Shown: in pieces, positions 4,099 to 59,421 of the stretch
How positions within the stretch are numbered: the stretch's first letter is position 1
Layout: each line of letters opens with the position of its first letter
From: Rhizophagus irregularis
Lineage: Eukaryota
Length of the DNA stretch: 64,000 nt
Direction of reading: 5' to 3'
Assembly: GCF_026210795.1 (NCBI RefSeq)
Contig: NC_089429.1
Location: 1,860,001-1,924,000 of the forward strand
Notes under the pieces: generated by a model
Told to the model about the DNA's origin: nothing
What the model saw: only the letters and a program-made list of their open reading frames with translations
Database searches by the model: none
Translations under genes and position numbers: made by a program

Positions 4099-7000
4099 TT
4101 AATTTTCATTTGTTTTAATATCTAAATATTAAATAAATAAAATTAATTAATTTATTTTATAATATACCATATATTATATACACTTTACATACCTAATTTC
4201 TTCAAATTAAACATGCATTCATTCAAATCTCCGCTTACTAGCATTTCACTCACTTGTACACTAGTTTGTGAATTTTTACTTTCAAGAATTTCATTCAATT
4301 GTTCACTAGTAAAATCAAGTAAGCGACTTGTATAAAAAGCCTGTGAGTGAGATTCAGTAGCAAGATTGTTATGCCCAATTGGTGCATTTATAAATTCCAT
4401 AATATTGCATTTTAATTCTTCATTAATTTCTTCAATTTTCTTACCATAAGGAGGAAAAATCCATTCATAAATAATTTTTAAAACTTCCTTAGAAGATGGC
4501 CTTTTTAATGGATCTTTATCCCAACATTTTTTCATCAAATCTACATAGCATTGTGGAGTATTTTCAATAATTTCAGGACGTTTACCTTCACAAATACTTA
4601 AACTAAGTTGAATATCATGTGCTCTATTATTATATGGTGGTATTCCAGATGTAAATTCCCACATAATCATAGAAAAACTGTATATATCACTAGCTGGAGT
4701 ATAAGATTTACCTCTTAAAACTTCAGGTGCCATAAATGGTACAACACCATAAATATCATATTTTTTCAAAAATGATTTTACAGGTTTACATAATCCTAAA
4801 TCACTAATATAAATTTTACTCTCATTATGATTTAAAATATTGCCATCATGAAGATCACAATGAATAAGATTTTGTTTATGTATATTATCAAGTCCAGAAA
4901 TAATTTCATACAACATGTATAATTTTTGATCCCAATCACTTTCAATTATTCTTGTTAAGTTTTCTCTTAAATTACCTTTGTTTGCATAATCCATTACTGC
5001 CATATATTTCAAAGTATCTGGATTTTTTGTAAATCCATAAAAATAGATAATTTCAAATGAATTTAAACAACTTTCATGATATTTCCACTATAAAAAATAA
5101 TAAACATATTAATATAAGTAAATTATAATTTAAATTAAAAAAATAAATAATATAAATATCATACTTCATTTAAAAATTCATTTAAATTTTCATTTAAAGT
5201 ATTATGGCATTTGAGAATTACATCTTTATTATCTCCATCATTCATCAACCATGTAGCTTTATATATAGTACCAAACCCTCCTTCATTAAGATATTCAACA
5301 TTTTTAAATTTATTATAAGGAATCCATCTTAACATTTTTTCATGAATAAATTTATCTATGATTTTATTTCCACTTTTTCCAAATCTATAATTTAAAAAAT
5401 TAAAATTATATTAAAGTTTATAATAAAATTTACACTGAAATTTAAGATTAAAATTAACACTTACTCTAAAATTTAAATAGGAATTTAAGATAATATATGT
5501 CTTAGTTTTTTGTATAAATATTTATAATAATACATAACCTACCAACTAAAGTAATAGAAATTTTAAAATAAAAGAATACAGTTAACAAATAAATATTATT
5601 AAAATATATAACAATAGAAATAACAAATAACTTACAAGCTTTATTATTAAATAATTTTTTAAATAAAGAATTTAGTTAGTTTAAATTATGTGTATATATT
5701 ATAACAATAAATAATAATAGAATTAAATAAATAACTTATAACTTACGATCTATTAAATAAATAATTTAGTTAGTTTAAATTATATGTAAATATTATAACA
5801 ATAAGTAATAATAGAAATGAATAAATAACTTACTAACTAAAAGAAATTACAAAATAATTTTTTAAATAAAGAATTTAGTTTATATGTAAATATTATAATA
5901 ATAAGTACTGATAATAGAATTAAATAAATAACTTACTCTCTATATTATTTAAATAATTATTTAAATAAAGAATTTAGTTTAACTTATACGTAAAAATCTT
6001 AACAATAAGTAATAATAAAATTAAATAACCTACCAACTAAAGAAATTACAAAAATAATTTTATAAATAAAGAATTTAGTTAGTTTAAATTATATGCAAAT
6101 ATTATTGTAACAATAAGTAATAATAGAATTAATTAATAACTTACACCCTATATTATTTAAATAATTTTTTAAATAAAGAATTTAGTTAATTTAAATTATA
6201 TGCAAATATTCAGTTATAACAAAGTAATAGTAATAAATAACTTACACCCTATATTATTTAATTTAAATAATTTAAATAAAGAATTTAGTTAATTTAAATT
6301 ATATGCAAATATTATAACAATAAGTAAATATAGAATTAAATAAATAACTTATAACTTACGATCTATTAATAAATAAAGAATTTAGTTAGTTTACATTATA
6401 TGTAAATATTATAAAATAGAATTAAATAAATAACTTACCAACTAAAAGAAATTACAAAATAATTTTTTAAATAAAGAATATATTTATTTAGTTAGGTTAA
6501 ATTATATGTAAATATTATAATAATAAGTAATAATAGAATTAAATAAATAACTTATAGCTTACGATCTATTAAATAAAGAATTTAGTTAGTTTAAATTATA
6601 TGCAAATATTATAACAATAAGTAATAATAGAATTAAATAAATAACTTATAACTTACGATCTATTAAATAAGAATTTAATTAGTTTAAATTATATGTAAAT
6701 ATTATAAAAATAAGTAATAATAGAATCAAATAAATAACTTACACCCTATATTATTTAAATAATTTTTTAAATAAAGGAATTTAATTAGTTTAAATTATAT
6801 GCAAATATTATAACAATAAGTAATAATAAAATTAAATAAATAACTTATAACTTACGATCTATTAAATAAAGAATTAAATTAGTTTAAATTATATGTAAAT
6901 ATTATAAAAATAAGTTAAATAAATAACTTATAACTTACGATCTATTAAATAAAGTATTTAGTTAGTTTAAATCATATATTATAACAATAAGTAATAATAG

Positions 7001-8428
7001 AATTAAATAAATAACTTACTCTCTATATTATTATTTAAATAATTTTTAAATAAAGAATTTAATTAGTTTAAATTATATGTAAATATTATAACAACAAGTA
7101 ATAATAGAATTAAATAAATAACTTACCAACTAAAAGAAATTACATTAAATAAAGAATTTAATTAGTTTAAATTATATGTTAATATTATAACAACAAGTAA
7201 TAATACTAGTATTAAATAAATAACTTATAACTTACGATCTATTAAATAAAGAAATTAGATAGTTTAAATTATATGTAAATATTATAACAATAAGTAATAA
7301 TAGAATTAAATAAATAACTTATAACTTACGATCTATTAAATAAGAATTTAGTTAGTTTAAATTATATGTAAATGTTATAACAATAAGCAATTGAATTAAA
7401 TAAATAACTTACTCTCTATATTATTTAAATAAATAAAGAAATTAGTTAGTTTAAATTATATATAAATATTATAACAATAAGTTATAATAGAATTAAATAA
7501 ATAACTTACTCTCTATATTAGTATTTAATGATTTTTAAATAAAGAATTTAGTTTAAATTAAATATTATAATAATAAGTAATAATAGAATTAAATAAATAA
7601 CTTACTTTCTATATTATTTAAATAATTTTTTAAATAAATAATTTAGTTAGATTAAATTATATTTAAATAGCAATAAGTAATGATAGAATTAAATAAATAA
7701 CTTATAACTTACGATCTATTAAACAAAGAATTAAGTTAGTTTAAATCATATACAAATATTATAACAATAAGTAATAATAGAATTAAATAAATAACTTACC
7801 AACTAAAAGAAATTACAAAATAATTTTTTAAATAAAGAATTTAGTTAGCTTAAATATAGAAATATAGACGTCATATAACTTACACCCTGTAGTATTATTA
7901 ATTTTTAATCAGTTAGGTATAAATATAATAGGAAAGTATTTACTATAAATTAATATATCACTTACAATCTATTTAAATTAAAAATATAATTAGTTAAATT
8001 ATATTAAAATATTAGATGTCAATAAATAAATATATTAAATATAATAATATCCTTAAGTATTATAACTTACCAGCTGTAATATAATTAATTATTTATTTAA
8101 ACAAAGTATTTAGTTATTTGAGTAAAATAAACAAAGTAAAAAACTAAAAATTTAAATAACTGATAACTTACAAACTATAGTATTAATAATCATTAAATAA
8201 ATTATTTAGTTATATATATAATATAGTTAGTTTGTATTTGTACATTATGCAAGTATTTTAATATTTTTGCTTGTTTAATATACCTGTACTCCTTTCCTTA
8301 AATCCTCCAGTATCATTTCCTTCAAACTCTACTATATTGCAAAATTGTTTAAAATTTTTATGGGATAATTCTAATTTTATATTATATATTTATGCTGTAT
8401 TATTACCTTTACTAATACATTGACCCAT
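4099..8428 (-). CDS. TKL-type protein kinase with N-terminal acylation motif and micro-exon array (predicted 34 coding exons, 430 aa)
   Basis: Exons 8428-8407, 8331-8284, 28 x 3 nt (8174 down to 5543), 5465 (1 nt), 5384-5165, 5087-4193, 4121-4099; sum 1293 nt, all GT-AG, no internal stop. Motifs EGGFGTIY, VILK, HCDLHDGN, DLG, APE, DIYSF. Confidence 0.85.
5385..8283 (-). repeat. Tandem array of 76-121 nt intron units separated by 1-3 nt micro-exons
   Basis: Each + strand unit contains (a/c)cttac or cctac (reverse of a GTAAG/GTAGG donor), 3 variable nt, then ct (reverse of AG); most also contain ttagttagt (reverse of ACTAACTAA branch site). Confidence 0.85.
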
Positions 8429-9060
8429 TACTATATCAAATTCTTCCTAATCAAAAAGATAAAGTAAATATCTTTTTTTCTTTTTTTATTATTTATATTA
8501 AATACCTTATTAGTACAGATAAATATGGTAACAATATTTATGCAAATACAATATGCTGACAAGTATTGCATGTATGACAAAACAAATTTTGCATGTCCGG
8601 AAATGCATGTCAATCATCTTGTTGTTACATAGTAGTAAAAATCACAAAATAGAGAAAGTTTTCTCAATACATATTATATAAATTTTTTAAGTCATTAAGA
8701 TTATGTTTGGCTACTAAGATTACTTAGAAGACAAAGAACAGCAAAGGTAGTTCTAATTATTATCACTTTTGATTTTTAATCAAAAACCAACTTGAAAATG
8801 ATCGGCATATACTTAATTTTTTTTATTTTAATATTTTTAATATTTAATACTTATAAAACTATTATAAATCAAATAATTTAATGAAATTATATTTAAACAC
8901 GTAGATAATGTATTATTTTTTTTATCAAATATTTATATTAAAATTATTTACAATTAAGTATACACAAAATTTTTTTATTAAAATAAAACTAGAAAATAAG
9001 TTTATTAATTATAAAATATTTAACTTTGAAATTAAAAGTCATGTGAGGGTGAAAATTTTT

Positions 9061-23574: not shown

Positions 23575-23960
23575 TGACATTTTACCTGTTCATGCTTGAT
23601 ATTCATCTGTCCGTGCTTGATATTTATCTGTACGTGTTTGATATTTTTATCTGTTCATGCTTGATGTTTATCTATCACGTGCTTGATATTTTTATCTGTT
23701 CATGCTTGATGTTTATCTGTACGTGCTTGATGTTTTATCTGTACGTGCTTGATGTTTTATCTGTACGTGCTTGATGTTTTATCTGTACCGTGCTTGATGT
23801 TTATCTGTATGTGCTTGATATTTATCTGTACGTGCTTGATGGTTTTATCTGTACGTGCTTGATAGTTTTATCTGACCATGCTTGACATTTTTATCCGTCC
23901 GTGCTTTATGTTTTTATCCATTTGTGCTTGATATTTTTGTCCGTCTGTGCTTGATGTTTT
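23575..23960. repeat. 21-23 bp subterminal tandem repeat (gtacgtgcttgatgttttatct), mirrored at about 27070-27410
   Basis: Direct inspection of both arms. Confidence 0.9.
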
Positions 23961-25169
23961 TGTCCAACTGTGTTTGATTTAATCCAACTATGTTTGATAA
24001 TTTTATCTTTGTCAAAAATTAGTTTCTTTGTCAGCACAGGGTTGATATATTGTTGGTCACATGTTTTTAAGTTTAGCGTAGTTTTAAAAAAAAATTTTTT
24101 TTTTTATTGGCTTTTTTTTATAAACAAATTTTGTAGAGAATTTTTATTTTTAATATAGGCAAAGGCTTTGTTTGGTAGAATTTCTTTGGGAATTTTTTAA
24201 TAAGATTGATAAAAAATTTCGTTAGAAAATTTTTTTCATTGATAGGGACATTTCTGAGTTTTTTTTTTTGATGATAATTTCGGAGAATTTTTTTTAATAA
24301 GATTTTTTTTTTGACATATACTTAATTTGTTGGAACAATTTTTTCTTTTAACAGGAGAGATTTTTTTTTTTTTGATAGAGAATTAATTGAGAATTTTTTT
24401 TTTTGTAGAAAATTATTTGAAGAATTTTTTTAATAGGGAAGATTTTTTTTTGATAGATAATTTCGTTACTAAAAATTTTTTTAACAAGTGAGATTTTTTT
24501 TTGATAGAGAATTTCGTTAAGAATTTTTTTTTAATAGGAGGGAGTTTTCCTTGATAAAGAATTCTTTTGGGAATTTTTTTTAATAGTATTTTTGACGGAG
24601 AATTTTATTAGAGAATTTTTTTTTTTTTTTGATAGAAATTTCATCATAGAATTTTTTTTTAATAGGTAAGATTTTTTTTTTTTTTTTGATAAAATCATTT
24701 CGTTAATAATTTTTTTAACAGGAGATTTTTTTTTTGATAGAAAATTTCGGTAAAGAATTTTTTTTTTAATAGGAAGGAAGTTTTTTTTTATAGAAATTCT
24801 TTTGAAAACTTTTTTTAATAGGTAAGAATCTTTGAATTTTTTTTTAATAGGGAAAATGTATTTTTTGATGGAAGATTTTTGTTAGAAATTTTTCTTAATC
24901 ATGGATATTTTTTTTGATTGAGAATTTCATTAGAGAATTGTTGGTTGAAAAGCCTTTTTATTTTTTTGATGGAGAATTTTGTTAGAAGTCTCAATAGAAA
25001 ATTTTATTGAAAATAGTTTTTTTTTAATAAGGGTATCGAGAATTTTGGCTTGAAATTTTTTTTTTTAATAAAGAATTTCATTAGAGATCTTTTTTTTTTA
25101 TAAAAAATTGATTGAAAATTTATTGGAAAATTTTTTATTAAATTTTACAATTTTAATAAATTTTTACTC

Positions 25170-25720
25170 CTCTTCATCTTCCCATTACTTCTTTTAATCT
25201 TCCATCGCTCCTTTTCGTCTCCCATCACTCCTTTTTGTCTCCTATCACTCCTTTTCGTCTCCCATCACTCTTTTTCGTCTCCCATCGCTCCCTTTCGTCT
25301 CCTATCACTTCTCTTAATCTTCTCATCACTTCTTTTCGTCTCCCATCACTCCTTTTCGTCTCCCATCACTCCTCTTAATCTTCCCATCACTTCTTTTCGT
25401 CACTCATCACTCCTCTTAATCTTCTCATCACTTCTTTTCGTCTCCCATCACTCCTTTTTATCTCCCATCACTCCTCTTCATCACCCATCACACCTCTTTG
25501 TCTCCCATTACTTCTTTTCGTCTTTCATCACTTCTTTTTGTCTCCCATCACTCCTCTTAATCTTCCCATCACTTCTTTTTTTTTATCTCCCATCACTCTT
25601 CTTTGTCACCCATCACTTCTTTTCATCTCTCATCATGTCCTATTTCTTCTTTTGGTTCCTATCACTTCTTATTACTCTTTTTTACTCCCTTTCATCTTCT
25701 ATTACTTTCCATTACTCCAT
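25170..25720. repeat. 20-21 bp pyrimidine-rich minisatellite (tctcccatcactccttttcg)
   Basis: Over 20 degenerate tandem units in the spacer of the foldback element. Confidence 0.9.
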
Positions 25721-27541
25721 TGTTATTTTATTTTTTTTCCTTGATCATTGTAATTTACTTATCTTTTTTATTTATTGTTATTGTTTCTTTTATTTGTACA
25801 TTTCAATAAAAATAAATATGGTGATTTTATTCTTTAAAATCGTAAATGTGACTTAAATTTTAATATTTGTAAATAAAATTTCATTAAATAAGATTATTTT
25901 GAATAAATATGTTTGCAAAAAAATTTTTTTAAAAAATATCTATAATAACCGATCAAAAATTAGATACATATTTGAAAAAAAAACCCCAGGCGATGATCGC
26001 CTAGGCGACATTTAGCAATCCCAATTTTTATTTATATATATTAAAAGTATTTAAAATAGTAGATTTTCAAAAATGTTTTTATGCCAATTAATGATAAAAA
26101 GAAGAAACACTGCAAACAAATTTCTGCTATATACTTTTCTTAAAGTTAACATTATTAACTTTTTAATTTATGTCGGCTCATGCGGAGCTTTACTAGTATA
26201 TAAAATTTGCTTAATTTACTATGCTACTTAGGATTCTATCATAGTTTTTTTTAATTTTATCTTGATCTTATTAATGTAATTTAGTATTTTTTTTAATTTT
26301 ATAAAAAAAGATCTCTAATGAAATTCTTTATTAAAAAAAAAAATTTCAAGCCAAAATTCTCGATACCCTTATTAAAAAAAAACTATTTTCAATAAAATTT
26401 TCTATTAAAAAAAAACAAAATATTTTGTTATAAAGTATAGAAAAGAGTAAAATGTATTGTAAGAAAAAAATTGAGACTTCTAACAAAATTCTCCATCAAA
26501 AAAATAAAAAAACTTTTCAACCAACAATTCTCTAATGAAATTCTCAATCAAAAAAAAATATCCCTGATTAAGAAAAATTTCTAACGAAAATCTTCCATCA
26601 AAAAATACATTTTCCCTATTAAAAAAAAAATTCTTTACCGAAATTTTCTATCAAAAAAAAAATTTCCTGTTAAAAAAATTATTAACGAAATGATCTATCA
26701 AAAAAAAAAATCTTACCTATTAAAAAAAAAATTCTATGATGAAATTTATATCAAAAAAAAAAAAAAAATTCTCTAATAAAATTCTCTGTCAAAAAATACT
26801 TTCACTTATTAAAAAAAATTCCCAAAAGAATTCTTTATCAAGGAAAACTCCCTCCTATTAAAAAAAAATTCTTAACGAAATTCTCTATCAAAAAAAAATC
26901 TCACTTGTTAAAAAAAATTTTCTAGTAACGAAATTATCTATCAAAAAAAAAATCTTCCCTATAAACTTAAAACATGTGACCAACAATATATCAACCCTGT
27001 GCTGACAAAGAAACTAATTTTTGACAAAGATAAAATTATTGAACATAGTTGGATTAAATCAAACACAGTTGGACAAAAACATCAAGCACAGACGGACAAA
27101 AATATCAAGCACAGATGGATAAAAACATAAAGCATGGACGGATAAAAATGTCAAGCATGGTCGGATAAAACCATCAAGCACGTACAGATAAAACCATCAA
27201 GCACGTACAGATAAATATCAAGCACGTACAGATAAACATCAAACACGTACAGATAAAACATCAAGCACGTACAGATAAAACATCAAGCATGTACAGATAA
27301 ACATCAAGCATGAACAGATAAAAATATCAAGCACGTGATAGATAAACATCAAGCATGAACAGATAAAAATATCAAGCACGGGACAGATGAAAATCAAGCA
27401 TAAACAGGTAAAATGTCAGACACAGAGTGACATTTTGTCTAGCCATGCTTGATATTTTATCGCGCAATGTCTGATAATTTTGTCCAACTCGGCTTGCCAT
27501 ATATTAATTAAATAACTTTACAGTACGTATTTACCTGGTCG

Positions 27542-50184: not shown

Positions 50185-52422
50185 TTAAAATCCATCTAAA
50201 GAGAATAAATATATTAGTAAATAAATATAATATATTATTTTAATATCATTAAAATATTAAATTATAAACAAACCATCGGGAGTTTCTTGTTTATCTTTTT
50301 CTTCTGAATGAATATTTGGATTATTTTGTACTTCATCTATATAAATAAGATAAATTAGAATAATAATAACTGATCATTATTATAAATAATTTATTTTACT
50401 TACCATTAATACTAATATTTGATCGTTGCTGCATTATTTCTCTCGCGTAGTCATTTTGAACGTCATCTATTATTTAATAAATCAAATTTAATAAAATATT
50501 CATTCTTATATTCAACGAAAATTAGAATTAAATATTTAAGGCTTTACCGTTCTCCATTTTCAATTTTTTAAATAATCTGGACGATTCTTTACTATCATTA
50601 TCTATAATCAAGATATAAATTAGTATTTATTCATTATAAAACACTAATATAAGAATAAATTACCTTTAAAATTAATTTTACTTGATTTACTAGCTATAAT
50701 GAAAATCAATCATATGTTATTTTATTTATATAAAATTCAATATTATTTTAATAAATACTTACCATTACTAGAAATACTAAAATCATATGATCTAGTGGTA
50801 TAAAATGCTGTTTTTTTTTAAAAAAAAAAGATTATTAATTAAAGGATTTATACTAAAACATTATTAACTTTATATTACCTTTTTGTTCTTCTATTATTAT
50901 TCAATTAAAAAAAAGTATTGTTAATTATAATGTTAAAGAAAAAAAACCAAATAGTTAATGAACATTAAAAAGCATACCTTCTGTTGCATTTTTTGGTTCA
51001 GGTAGATTTTCAAAATTATGAATTTTACTTGTAAATATTTTACTACTCATGATATTGCTTGTTTTTTCGTCTACTTGTATTATTGATTGAGGTAGTTCAT
51101 CAGGTTTGTTTTGGTAATATGATTTAATTTCGCTTATTTTATTAAAGAGTGTATTAGTATCAGGTCTTTTTAGTGGATTAGCATCCCAACATTGTTCCAT
51201 TAGACTTTTATATTCGGAAGGAATTTCTGATATAATTTTTGGTCTTATACCATCAATGATATTAATTGCAAGGATACAATCATGTTCATAATTCATAAAT
51301 GGAGGTTGTCCAAATGAAATTTCCCACATAAGCATTGCAATACTATAAATATCAGATTTATAAGTATACCCTTTTCCATTAATAACTTCGGGAGCTATGT
51401 AAGGAAGATTTCCATATATACTTGTTGATGGTTTGTCTGCAGGACCGCAAAATCCAAGATCACTAATACGCCAATGATCATTAAACTGTGAATATAATAT
51501 ATTTCCAGAATGCAAATCTCTGTGAATTGAATTCTCTTCATGAATCCAATAAAGTTTATCAATAATTAAAAAAGTAATTTTAATTCTTTCATTCCATGTA
51601 AGTTGATTATGATTTTGTTGTAAATATTCTCTTAAATTTACATCCAATTTATACATTACGAGTAAATAATTTCCATTTGATGGATTTTGTGTTAAACCAA
51701 AACATTGAACGATAGATTGATGTTTGTTGCCTAAAGTTAAATGTGATTTAGCCTTTAAAAAATAATAAATATTATTATTAACAATTAAATTTTAAATTTA
51801 AGTTCTTTAAATATTTTTTAAACTTACAAACCTCTTCAAACCAACTTTGACTTGCATTTTCAATATTTTTTAATTCTTTAAGTATTACAGCAAGAGTTCC
51901 AAATCTTATTAATTGTTGCTCTTTAGAATCCCATTCTTCATAAGGTCCATCAATCCGCTCTGCTGTATAAATCTCTGAGAATCCACCTTTTGTAAGATAT
52001 TTAATATTTTCTAAATTATTATAAGGAATCCATTCAATTACAGTATCAGGTGAAAGTGTTTCCATTTGACAATTTTTTATTAAATTATCAATAACATTAT
52101 TTCCAGAAGTCCAACTTGAAAAATTAGATTTTAAATAATTTCGAACACAATATTCACAATATAATGTAGCTAAACATTTTTGGTTACAATTTTCACAAAT
52201 TCTTCTTGTCCCTGAATTATAAATAATTTTATCTCGGTCATAAGATTGATTAGTTAATCTTATTGCTTCAGTTTTTTCTTCTTCTGTAAGAGATTTGTCA
52301 GCAAGAATGAATTGTTTACTAAATTCGTATTGTTCATGAAGGCCAACGTGAATATTATAATCAATTGACGTAAATGATTCACTAATTACTGCTCGCATTA
52401 ATTTTTTCCGAATATTGGACAT
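50185..52422 (-). CDS. TKL-type protein kinase with Cys-rich N-terminus, 9 exons
   Basis: Exons 52422-51832, 51752-50978, 50890-50879, 50807-50763, 50693-50664, 50601-50548, 50466-50404, 50336-50274, 50195-50185; motifs CENC..CEYC, KGGFSEIY, VILK, HRDLHSGN, DLG, APE. Confidence 0.85.
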
Positions 52423-55400
52423 TTTTGTAAAAAAAAGAAATATTTTTAAGTGCAAAAAAAAAATAAAGTTTCCATAGACGGTTAAACAAATAAGTTGTGC
52501 AACCACCAAAATTTTAATATTGTCTACCTGTCATGTGCTGCATGTGCTGCATTGTAAACAAAATAATGATCATCTGATCATAAAATATAGACAAAATAAT
52601 CCGTCATTACCGACAACTTGGATCCTTTATTTTTTATTATACACGTTCTGTAAAAACTACAAAGGTACAAATGACGTTAAGGTTAAGCTTTTGTAGACTA
52701 GAATTATTTTCTGCAAATTTAATTTTGATGTTTTGGGAAAAAACCTATTTTCAAATAATCATAGAATTCAAAAAATGGAAACACCTTTAAATTCATAATA
52801 AAATAAAATTTCAATTGTCATATTTGTGATGATGATTTTCTATGTTATCAATAAATTTCAATGGTAATAAAAAAATATTAAATATTTAGTAATGGATTAA
52901 TTTTCTTTTTTTTTTCAACAATATTTATTTTAGTTATTACTTAGGATTTTTTTTTTTTTTTTGGAAATTGATGTTTAATGAGCCAAATTTGAAGTTTCGA
53001 ATGAAAAGGCGAAATCAAAAATTCAATTTTGATTATAAAGTTTTATTTCATAATATTTCGATATTATAATGTAGTAACATATTTTTCAGGCAAATTTATT
53101 GCCTTTTTCGTAACATAATGAGCTTATAAAAATTAAAAGTTAACCATGTTTTAAATAATTTCGCTACTCAATAAAACTTTCTAAAAAAAAATTCAGAGAT
53201 CATCTCTTGATAATTTTTTATTGCAGGAAAAATAAAATTATTGTAGTTGGAGACTAAAGTCACTAAATATTTAAGAGTATACTATCCATTTTTTAGGTAT
53301 ATCTGGATGACATTATTGATGACTATATCTATTTGGTGAGCGACTCTATAAAATGATCCTTATTTAAACATCATTTTTTATTCACTTTTTAATGGAAAAA
53401 ATCATTTACTAGGACTTCCTAAGAATTTAGGTCATTAGAAAATTATACTCAACATTTTGCAAATTATATAAAATTCTTGAAGAATATCCTAAGGGTTCAC
53501 AAGTTTTTTTGTAAATTTTCTAAAATACTTCGAAAATATAAAATAATAGATGTTATTATTAGCAAAGAACAATCGCATTATTGAAGTGAAATTGGCTGAT
53601 AATAAAAACGTGATCAATATGATAATGTAATAGACTAGTAGGTAAAATTTATTTATTCATCAATGCATTTTTAACAACTTACAATATTCTGATTATTTTT
53701 TCTTTTATTTAATTTAGTAATTGAAGTGAGATTCGATTCAATTCATCATATTCTCTTTCATTACCAGCAAATAATTAAAAGGACTTTTAGAGTTATTTAA
53801 ACTGATAACAATGACGTTTGATAAATGAAACATTGTACCATGTTAAAACCAAAAACAGAAATAACACATTTTAGAGAAGTTTATTTGTCTGGCTATCACG
53901 TGGAATATTACTTAACTCTTTCAATATCTGTATATTTTCGAAAACGTATTTAAAGATTTGTTTTATTTTATTTTTTTTCTTAACATGACAAAAAGGATTT
54001 GGTGATTAATTATTTATCATACTGCATTATTTCGTAACAAATTTATGTTAACCTATTATTATTACCTTTAAATAGCAAGTAGGCCAAAAACAATCTGTCA
54101 TTCCCTATTAAAAGAAAAAATTATATTAAATCATATTAGTAAGTTTAAGAGCGATACTACATACTATATATCCTAACGGTCGTAGAAATTTTTACGCCAA
54201 GTTTTACCGGATTTACGAAACAAAATTTTTTTTAAATCTGAAATTTATAAATATTTTCTTTTTTTTTTAATATGTGGGAAAAATAGAAATTGTTTATAAA
54301 TTAATAAATATCAAGTAAATTAGCACATAAATTCTTGATATTTCACGTTGGAACCATTTACTCATTATTCACGAGGCGAGTGATAAACATTTAGCTAAGT
54401 TAACAAACTTCTACTCAATTCTAGTTGAAAAAATTAACTTTGGCCAAAATTGGTTAAACTCTTACCTGGAAATAAGAAATGATTTATATATTCTTCTGAG
54501 TGTTTATATCATGAGAAGAGTTACGCAATTTTTTGGTAATCATATTTGACTAATTTACTCGTGAAGATTATCTAATTTCACTTTATATCTATGTAATACC
54601 AAATTAAGTGCTTTAAGAATCACTACATCAATTATTTATAAATTTTTTTTAATAATAGTGTCCTTGTTTTATTTATAAATTTACTAATTGAGAAGAAAAA
54701 AGATTTCATTGACCAAACAAAAAAAATTTGTGATTTTCTCGTTAGCATCACGCATAGATCTTTACAAAAAAATTTATATTATCTTACGTAATTTTTTAAC
54801 TTGCTATTTTACACATGCTTCTACATATTAATTTTATTACATGCTAAAAATAATAAATGAAGTAACTTATTTTTACTATTTTTAGGGAGTCCGATCTAGC
54901 CAGCCAAGATTGAGTAATTGGTCATTGTAATAAATTATTTTTTACATAGAGAAAGAAAGAAAATTAATTTTAATTTTTGATTTTATTTTTACGTGTTATA
55001 AATTCTGTTACTCAAAAATCCTTAAATCTCAGCATCATCACAATTATTTTAGTATAATTGATCTGTAAATGTAAATTTGAAAAATAGTTAGTATATTATC
55101 TACCAAAAAATCTAATACTGAAAATTTATATTGTGTTTTTTAACTAGATATAAGTAAACTCAAATGTGATTTATATATAAGCAAATAATATATGATGAGA
55201 ATTCTAGTATTCAATTCCTTTGTATCATCCGTGAGTTAGTGTCCAGGTGAAATTAGGATTAGGAGACTATTAAAACTTTTTTTTGAATTTAAATAGAAAC
55301 TAAATAAACAAATAAAAGTTCTCATAATAACCAAAATCTTATTTAACCCTAAATCCTAGATTCATCTTTTAATACGCTTTAATCATTCTATCAAAATAAA

Positions 55401-59200: not shown

Positions 59201-59421
59201 AATAGACTGTAGTACAATATATTTAGTTTTCTATAGCATAGTTTCAAATTTTGTATTAAATAGATACTTTATTGACTCAATGTATTTACTTACGCTGACA
59301 TTAGAATTGGTTACGTTTGTAATATTTTCAATATTAATAAAGGAAAAATATATATATATATATAATATAACTTTATTTATTGCAAATAATATAAAATAAT
59401 CCAAGTTGTATACTATATAAG

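Follow-up and report, generated by a model that had tools for sequence, protein, structure and literature searches.

Does a kinase gene of Rhizophagus irregularis depend on an exon of a single nucleotide to reach its kinase domain in frame? The question arises from a gene on the minus strand (4099-8428) of the window, the 64,000-nt stretch of genomic DNA analysed here, in which an earlier note had proposed a lone A at position 5465 as an exon of its own. The letters and coordinates of the minus strand bear out the core of this proposal. The A lies between introns of 77 and 80 nt, both of the GT-AG type, in the context ttttag / A / gtaagtgt, i.e., with consensus-strength splice signals on either side, AG as acceptor and GT as donor, and the two introns are similar in size to the RNA-confirmed 77-nt intron further downstream. 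With the A included, the gene model comprises 33 exons and one open frame of 425 codons (Table 1). All upstream junctions in this model, from exon 1 to the A, are in phase 1 and the kinase exon is in phase 2, as had been claimed; the A closes the frame, and a Glu codon draws one base from each of three exons. We consider it likely that A5465 is a constitutive one-base exon that shifts the reading from phase 1 to phase 2 under intron definition.

The predicted kinase domain is intact and tyrosine-kinase-like, and by its sequence the gene belongs to the expanded PF07714 family of Rhizophagus. In a homolog search the main kinase exon matched the R. irregularis protein P0001 at 100% and had 945 relatives at E<=1e-50, and Pfam PF07714 (tyrosine-kinase-like) was found at 149 bits (cut-off 23.1); kinase domains were the only domains found in the gene. 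The translation contains the Gly loop, Lys, catalytic Asp/Asn, DLG and APE motifs. At the other end of the protein, MGQC is presumably a myristoylation/palmitoylation start. In-frame stops lie upstream of this exon, whether spliced or unspliced, and the paralog P0040 likewise starts MGQC. Both public models of the gene (P0001 and P0186) start instead at an internal Met in exon 5384-5165. The 23-nt last exon reproduces the C-terminus of P0186, and retention of the 71-nt intron before it gives a shorter C-terminal end, as in P0001. Several EFEGS-type acidic repeat copies occur N-terminally in P0014, P0018, P0020, P0027, P0040, P0095, P0135 and P0167, compared with the single 48-nt exon here, a second level of exon-number variation.

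Table 1. Features of the kinase gene, listed from its 5' to its 3' end; positions are those of the window.
Feature	Position	Strand	Description
Possible 5' UTR intron	8431..8505	-	75 nt, from sequence only
First coding exon	8407..8428	-	22 nt, ends in phase 1, starts MGQC
Acidic repeat exon	8284..8331	-	48 nt, phase 1-1, resembles EFEGS-type repeats of paralogs
Array of 28 predicted 3-nt exons	5543..8174	-	Phase 1, introns of 76-121 nt
77-nt intron before A	5466..5542	-	GTAGGT...TTTTAG
Conserved 28-nt block (acceptor tract, A, donor)	5459..5486	-	28/28 identical in L004
Likely single-nucleotide exon A	5465	-	Middle base of Glu codon split across three exons
80-nt intron after A	5385..5464	-	GTAAGT...TTATAG, TTAAT at -30 and -19
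First kinase exon	5165..5384	-	220 nt, enters in phase 2, opens with conserved FGKSGN segment
77-nt intron	5088..5164	-	RNA-confirmed splicing
Main kinase exon (PF07714)	4193..5087	-	With last intron retained, continues to stop at 4185
Likely last coding exon	4099..4121	-	After 71-nt intron

Skipping of the A leads to a stop at 60 aa in a frame test that is conditional on the upstream exons, and a 5-nt AGTAA exon in its place, combined with phase-1 upstream exons, leads to a stop at residue 52. The earlier note had also taken the frame arithmetic as independent support for the whole model, a step that fails: the frame stays open as well if the A is skipped and the donor of the last triplet is shifted by +4 (5538), which likewise supplies a 3n+1 shift. 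Because this donor also works and 3-nt exons are frame-neutral, the arithmetic proves only the need for some 3n+1 shift. The splice signals are a separate matter. When the 157-nt interior of the merged intron was dinucleotide-shuffled 20000 times, the strict pattern YAG-N-GTAAGT appeared in 11 cases, any HAG-(1,4,7,10 nt)-GTRAG in 141, and a relaxed, central and frame-fixing HAG-(3n+1)-GTRW in 1740. Elsewhere in the window YAG-N-GTAAGT occurs one time, as ag-C-gtaagt at 59294 on the minus strand behind a stop codon, so the bare motif does arise by chance, and this copy can serve as a negative control. The ACTAAG suggested previously as a branch site does not follow the YTRAY consensus and is not conserved, the related locus L004 described below having ATTAAG; no YTRAY match was found in the last 60 nt of the 77-nt intron, and YTRAY is present in the 80-nt intron (Table 1). 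A second candidate micro-exon, ag-T-gt at 5434, was rejected, as the introns on either side of it would be 30 and 49 nt long.

Conservation of AG-A-GT had been named as a check of the one-base exon, and it is borne out in the one relative at hand. A pattern scan of metagenomes yielded six loci, five in unrelated bacterial-type genes and one in a relative of the kinase gene (L004), and scans of viral and prokaryote genomes for the pattern yielded 0 loci. L004, the single locus on which the related-DNA comparison is based and a close one (119/133 or 89% identity in the kinase exon), is identical at all 28 bases of the block around the A, with 22/34 (65%) and 56/75 (75%) identity in the adjacent introns. 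In X1, a sequencing run that behaves as DNA because introns are covered, the summed contig depth was 1170 and 862 over 5424-5521 and 348 and 121 in neighbouring bins, such summed depth not being equal to copy number; most exact-match contigs among the matches listed had a depth of 18-27. The depth peak fits a block that may have been kept by many paralogs. In one X1 contig, 20 letters at 5459 are connected with the kinase exon through different sequence.

Protein records of homologs carry further traces. The FGKSGN-to-WIPY segment is present in 83 of 213 records, repeat annotations of the same genes included, and is preceded by S-K/N in 25, N/I-L-E in 8, C/G-K in 9, Y/N-R in 5, other residues in 26 and nothing in 10. 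We infer that S-K/N corresponds to A+GTAA+A read as exon, N/I-L-E to the acceptor tract read as exon up to the donor after AG-A, and C/G-K to a phase-1 exon extended by the first 4 nt of its donor. Traces of the one-base site, as deduced from the window sequence, would thus be present in 33 of the 83 records (25 with S-K/N and 8 with N/I-L-E), and the same phase gap appears to recur across models from R. irregularis, R. diaphanus and R. clarus. Two records, P0149 (S-E before FG) and P0014 (V-E-F-G into the Gly loop), agree, at the protein level alone, with Glu as the junction residue. The retrieved public models patch the frame by a 5-nt exon or a +4 donor, and none has the 5' exon structure predicted here. 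Among the 356 protein records from the homolog and representative searches, there was neither a phase-1 triplet segment joined to a kinase nor a transcript-derived full-length protein, and the 21 long-read-assisted OCT59 models are without the 5' part.

Upstream of the A, the array of predicted 3-nt exons has intact AG and GT at 28/28 triplets at the DNA level, the donors being GTAAGT (25), GTAGGT (2) and GTAAGC (1). A single ~94-bp unit, repeated in tandem and with higher-order periods, accounts for the central 22 introns. The interiors of these core copies deviate from their consensus by 0.069 per site and have 13 invariant columns out of 84; without constraint, the 22 copies should have accumulated about six changes at their 88 GT/AG positions, a rough figure, the copies being related. 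No intron is longer than 121 nt, and hence no dead unit is concealed in the array. Triplet type is tied to the type of acceptor tail (ATC, TTG/TTA, AGA/GGT/AAA), and the copied unit therefore covers acceptor, triplet and donor. A 7-nt donor duplication occurs in 9 of the 22 core introns, with the G lost from the second copy. Derivation of the two introns around the A from the array unit is unsupported (z 0.7 for the 77-nt and 0.4 for the 80-nt intron against shuffles). As both differ from the array unit, the one-base exon would be older than the array expansion. Together, the 28 triplets and the A form 29 consecutive exons that total 85 nt.

Of the possible reading phases of the array, phase 2 was rejected because of five stops, and phase 0 is without stops and hydrophobic. 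Phase 1 has a CAI of 0.49 and a GC3 of 0.28, compared with 0.28 and 0.54 in phase 0; the 1st-5th percentile of native stretches spans a CAI of 0.46-0.53, and the GC3 of the window's genes is 0.14. Codon usage favours phase 1 over phase 0, though the phase-1 values are still low. Stop avoidance in the array is weak evidence, a stop-free triplet order being obtained in 14.5% of shuffles. Skipping of single triplets creates a stop in 2 of 28 cases. The last triplet is among these, its final G keeping the three-exon codon from becoming TAA. Array-like runs of I/L/G/M/V occur in ten protein records, nine of which end in S-K, and arrays therefore recur in R. irregularis and R. diaphanus. In 5 of these 10 strings (P0017, P0040, P0096, P0141, P0144) a G stands directly before R, E or D; if this G is GGT, phase 1 would contain a stop there, which would speak against this phase.

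The RNA data comprise three polyA runs (X21, X22, X23) from two samples of one study, to which 257, 280 and 315 aligned reads belong. At least 99% identity was reached by 5, 10 and 10 of them; as nearly all are 95-99% identical, the reads stem mostly from paralogs or another strain. The splice joint of intron 5088-5164 is covered by 5, 9 and 10 reads, respectively, and the downstream acceptor region is used in RNA of the kinase family. Depth falls to zero inside the 80-nt intron and is zero over 5424-5590, with reads stopping at about 5384. Frame, splice consensus and conservation give good support to A5465 as a real one-base exon, but no read or contig among the matches listed, and no protein record, displays the A itself. 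In bin 5375-5423, a read would add 10 bases if it ended at 5384, 11 if the A was skipped and 13 if the +4 donor was used. The six cells contain 27, 20, 20, 10, 21 and 34 bases; three (20, 20, 10) fit 10-base ends, neither 11 nor 13 divides any of the six, and 27, 21 and 34 are ambiguous. This arithmetic takes means as rounded values, assumes the numbers of reads, uses greedy extension and is compatible with AGTAA too. The paralog-dominated reads stop at the acceptor in a manner that indirectly disfavours skipping of the A.

Could the kinase do without the A altogether? The 5' part might be untranslated, as 5' UTR or decayed sequence, with translation starting at the internal Met of exon 5384-5165 and the A, whether spliced in or not, free of any frame duty. 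P0001 and P0186 do begin at this Met, no RNA read is clearly from this gene copy, and the frequency of stop-free triplet orders among shuffles agrees with such a reading. Yet the Met is found in 0 of the 83 homologs, while the coding segment upstream of it is conserved (G in 82, S in 81 and N in 80 of 83), and the MGQC start with in-frame stops upstream recurs in P0040. Retention of AG and GT in all 28 units, with drifting interiors and no hidden dead unit, also speaks against decay, and we regard an internal start as very unlikely.

Other readings keep the 5' part coding and change the splice sites, and both are rated lower still. One has a 5-nt exon, AGTAA, ending at the GT at +5 of the donor, and an array read in phase 0 as a hydrophobic stretch. 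The stop-free, hydrophobic phase-0 translation, the compatible read ends and S-K/N in 25 of 83 records, several of them after long I/L/G/M/V runs, are in accordance with it, as are many public paralog models. Several such models are 5'-partial, however, and the same +4 patch is seen at unrelated phase-1 donors (nine records), as expected of a predictor artefact. Moreover, phase-1 upstream exons run into an immediate stop, the 109-nt intron that precedes the array yielded no entry in phase 0, GTAAGT would have to give way as donor to GTGTTA (in L004, GTAATA), and the phase-0 CAI and the distance of its GC3 from that of the window's genes are unfavourable; we hold this exon to be highly improbable. 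The least probable reading in our view, although 5538 gives an open frame, is that the A is skipped and the frame closed by a donor 4 nt downstream, at the last or another triplet. Minor use of a GT at +5 as a shifted donor is known. Here, however, GTTATG is far weaker than GTAGGT, the 13-base read extension into bin 5375-5423 is absent from 6/6 cells, and the fully conserved block would be left unexplained.

If the A is a one-base exon, as we favour, each short intron (76-121 nt) may be recognised via its own signals, i.e., by intron definition. Because every intron would be recognised separately, exon length would be nearly irrelevant, and exons could be as short as 3 or even 1 nt. Splicing at the A could proceed in two steps, with removal of one intron extending the one-base exon ahead of removal of the other. 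Through the A, the kinase domain would then be linked to 28 predicted codon-sized exons and, beyond them, to an N-terminus with a predicted lipid anchor. The array may have expanded by tandem copying of an intron-plus-3-nt unit, growth that would be tolerated because this unit is frame-neutral, while the older one-base exon would have stayed single and been retained because its loss ends the protein at 60 residues. In this way both the length and the sequence of a linker from membrane anchor to kinase would depend on the array, at about one residue per unit. It is tempting to extend this to a subfamily-wide, splice-coded hypervariable linker, in which phase-1 triplets are included or skipped combinatorially and the shared one-base exon acts as a frame gate for the kinase; each triplet skip would remove one residue and recode its neighbour. 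We consider this extension rather doubtful. If true, an obligate symbiont would diversify its signalling kinases in an NLR-like manner by means of this combinatorial linker, which present annotations would fail to reveal.

One-base exons had been described to us as very rare, with a single report from Arabidopsis APC11, which is overstated, as the available texts also describe them in Fusarium CYP621A (PMC12940212) and in 13 genes of Coprinopsis (PMC12230235). The APC11 exon, in a single-copy gene, was proven by cDNA and mutation (PMC4674806). Like A5465 it is a lone A between AG and GT that is required by the frame and was missed by annotation; unlike the exon inferred here in an expanded family, it is accompanied by no micro-exon array in the portion of that account available (PMC4674806). 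The Fusarium exon, a G in the conserved PKG motif between long exons, was confirmed by 18 reads (PMC12940212). The excerpted description shares with our case the fungal host, the phase-1 donor and phase-2 acceptor, the middle codon position, conservation and wrong public models, whereas the base here is an A, lies in a variable linker beside 3-nt exons and is predicted from sequence, not read-confirmed as in CYP621A (PMC12940212). In Coprinopsis cinerea, 13 one-nt exons in 13 genes and 89 genes with an exon of <=3 nt indicate that fungal spliceosomes handle one-nt exons; the cases there are scattered and single, and the available part of the paper describes no tandem array (PMC12230235). For plants a micro-exon database exists (PMC12409088), and in the available text of the R. 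irregularis assembly paper no such exon structure is mentioned (PMC10234402). A literature search that drew mostly on the main texts of openly accessible papers gave no hit on micro-exons for Rhizophagus or for its kinases.

The original account of mini-exons in the nank genes of Tuber melanosporum is reportedly that of Iotti et al. 2012. These NACHT-ANK genes contain codon-sized mini-exons, including dozens of 3-bp exons, and alternative splicing of them is reported in the available texts (PMC9815663, PMC4986451). As far as those texts describe them, the likeness consists in dozens of 3-bp exons with intact signals (28/28 here) in an expanded fungal family; the difference is that the Tuber genes are NLR genes, whereas here the array lies in the N-terminal linker of a kinase and is closed by a one-base exon. 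With kinase domains only, the host gene is not a NACHT-ANK NLR. By analogy, the predicted array works like the Tuber mini-exon arrays and is not a member of them.

One-base exons (Arabidopsis, Fusarium, Coprinopsis) and codon-sized arrays (Tuber NLR genes) are thus already known. What is likely new is a putatively obligatory, family-wide one-base exon paired with an expanding codon-exon array in a kinase family, and this combination is a more interesting object than the lone exon. If it is real, tens of kinase genes in a model mycorrhizal fungus would be misannotated at the 5' end, with a predicted membrane anchor missing from databases. One-base exons would be a family trait and not merely isolated cases, the 29 tiny exons would offer a strong natural test of minimum exon size under intron definition, and codon-sized exon arrays would extend from ascomycete NLR genes to Glomeromycotina kinases.

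The window has a GC content of 20-30% and contains F-box-like and kinase genes. Some nine long genes, each a single ORF of 545-612 aa with MACSK or MTCSK at its start, are spread over 216-61191 on both strands, a cluster that we take to be F-box/LRR-like. A second kinase gene, at 50195-52530 on the minus strand, has its 3' end divided among a number of short exons, each ~10-70 nt long. Two arrays of 22-23-nt repeats lie in opposite orientation at 23580-24007 and 27076-27413, with further repeats between them, among these a 20-nt repeat array at 25166-25635; judged by this arrangement, the region 23580-27413 looks like an inverted-repeat mobile element.
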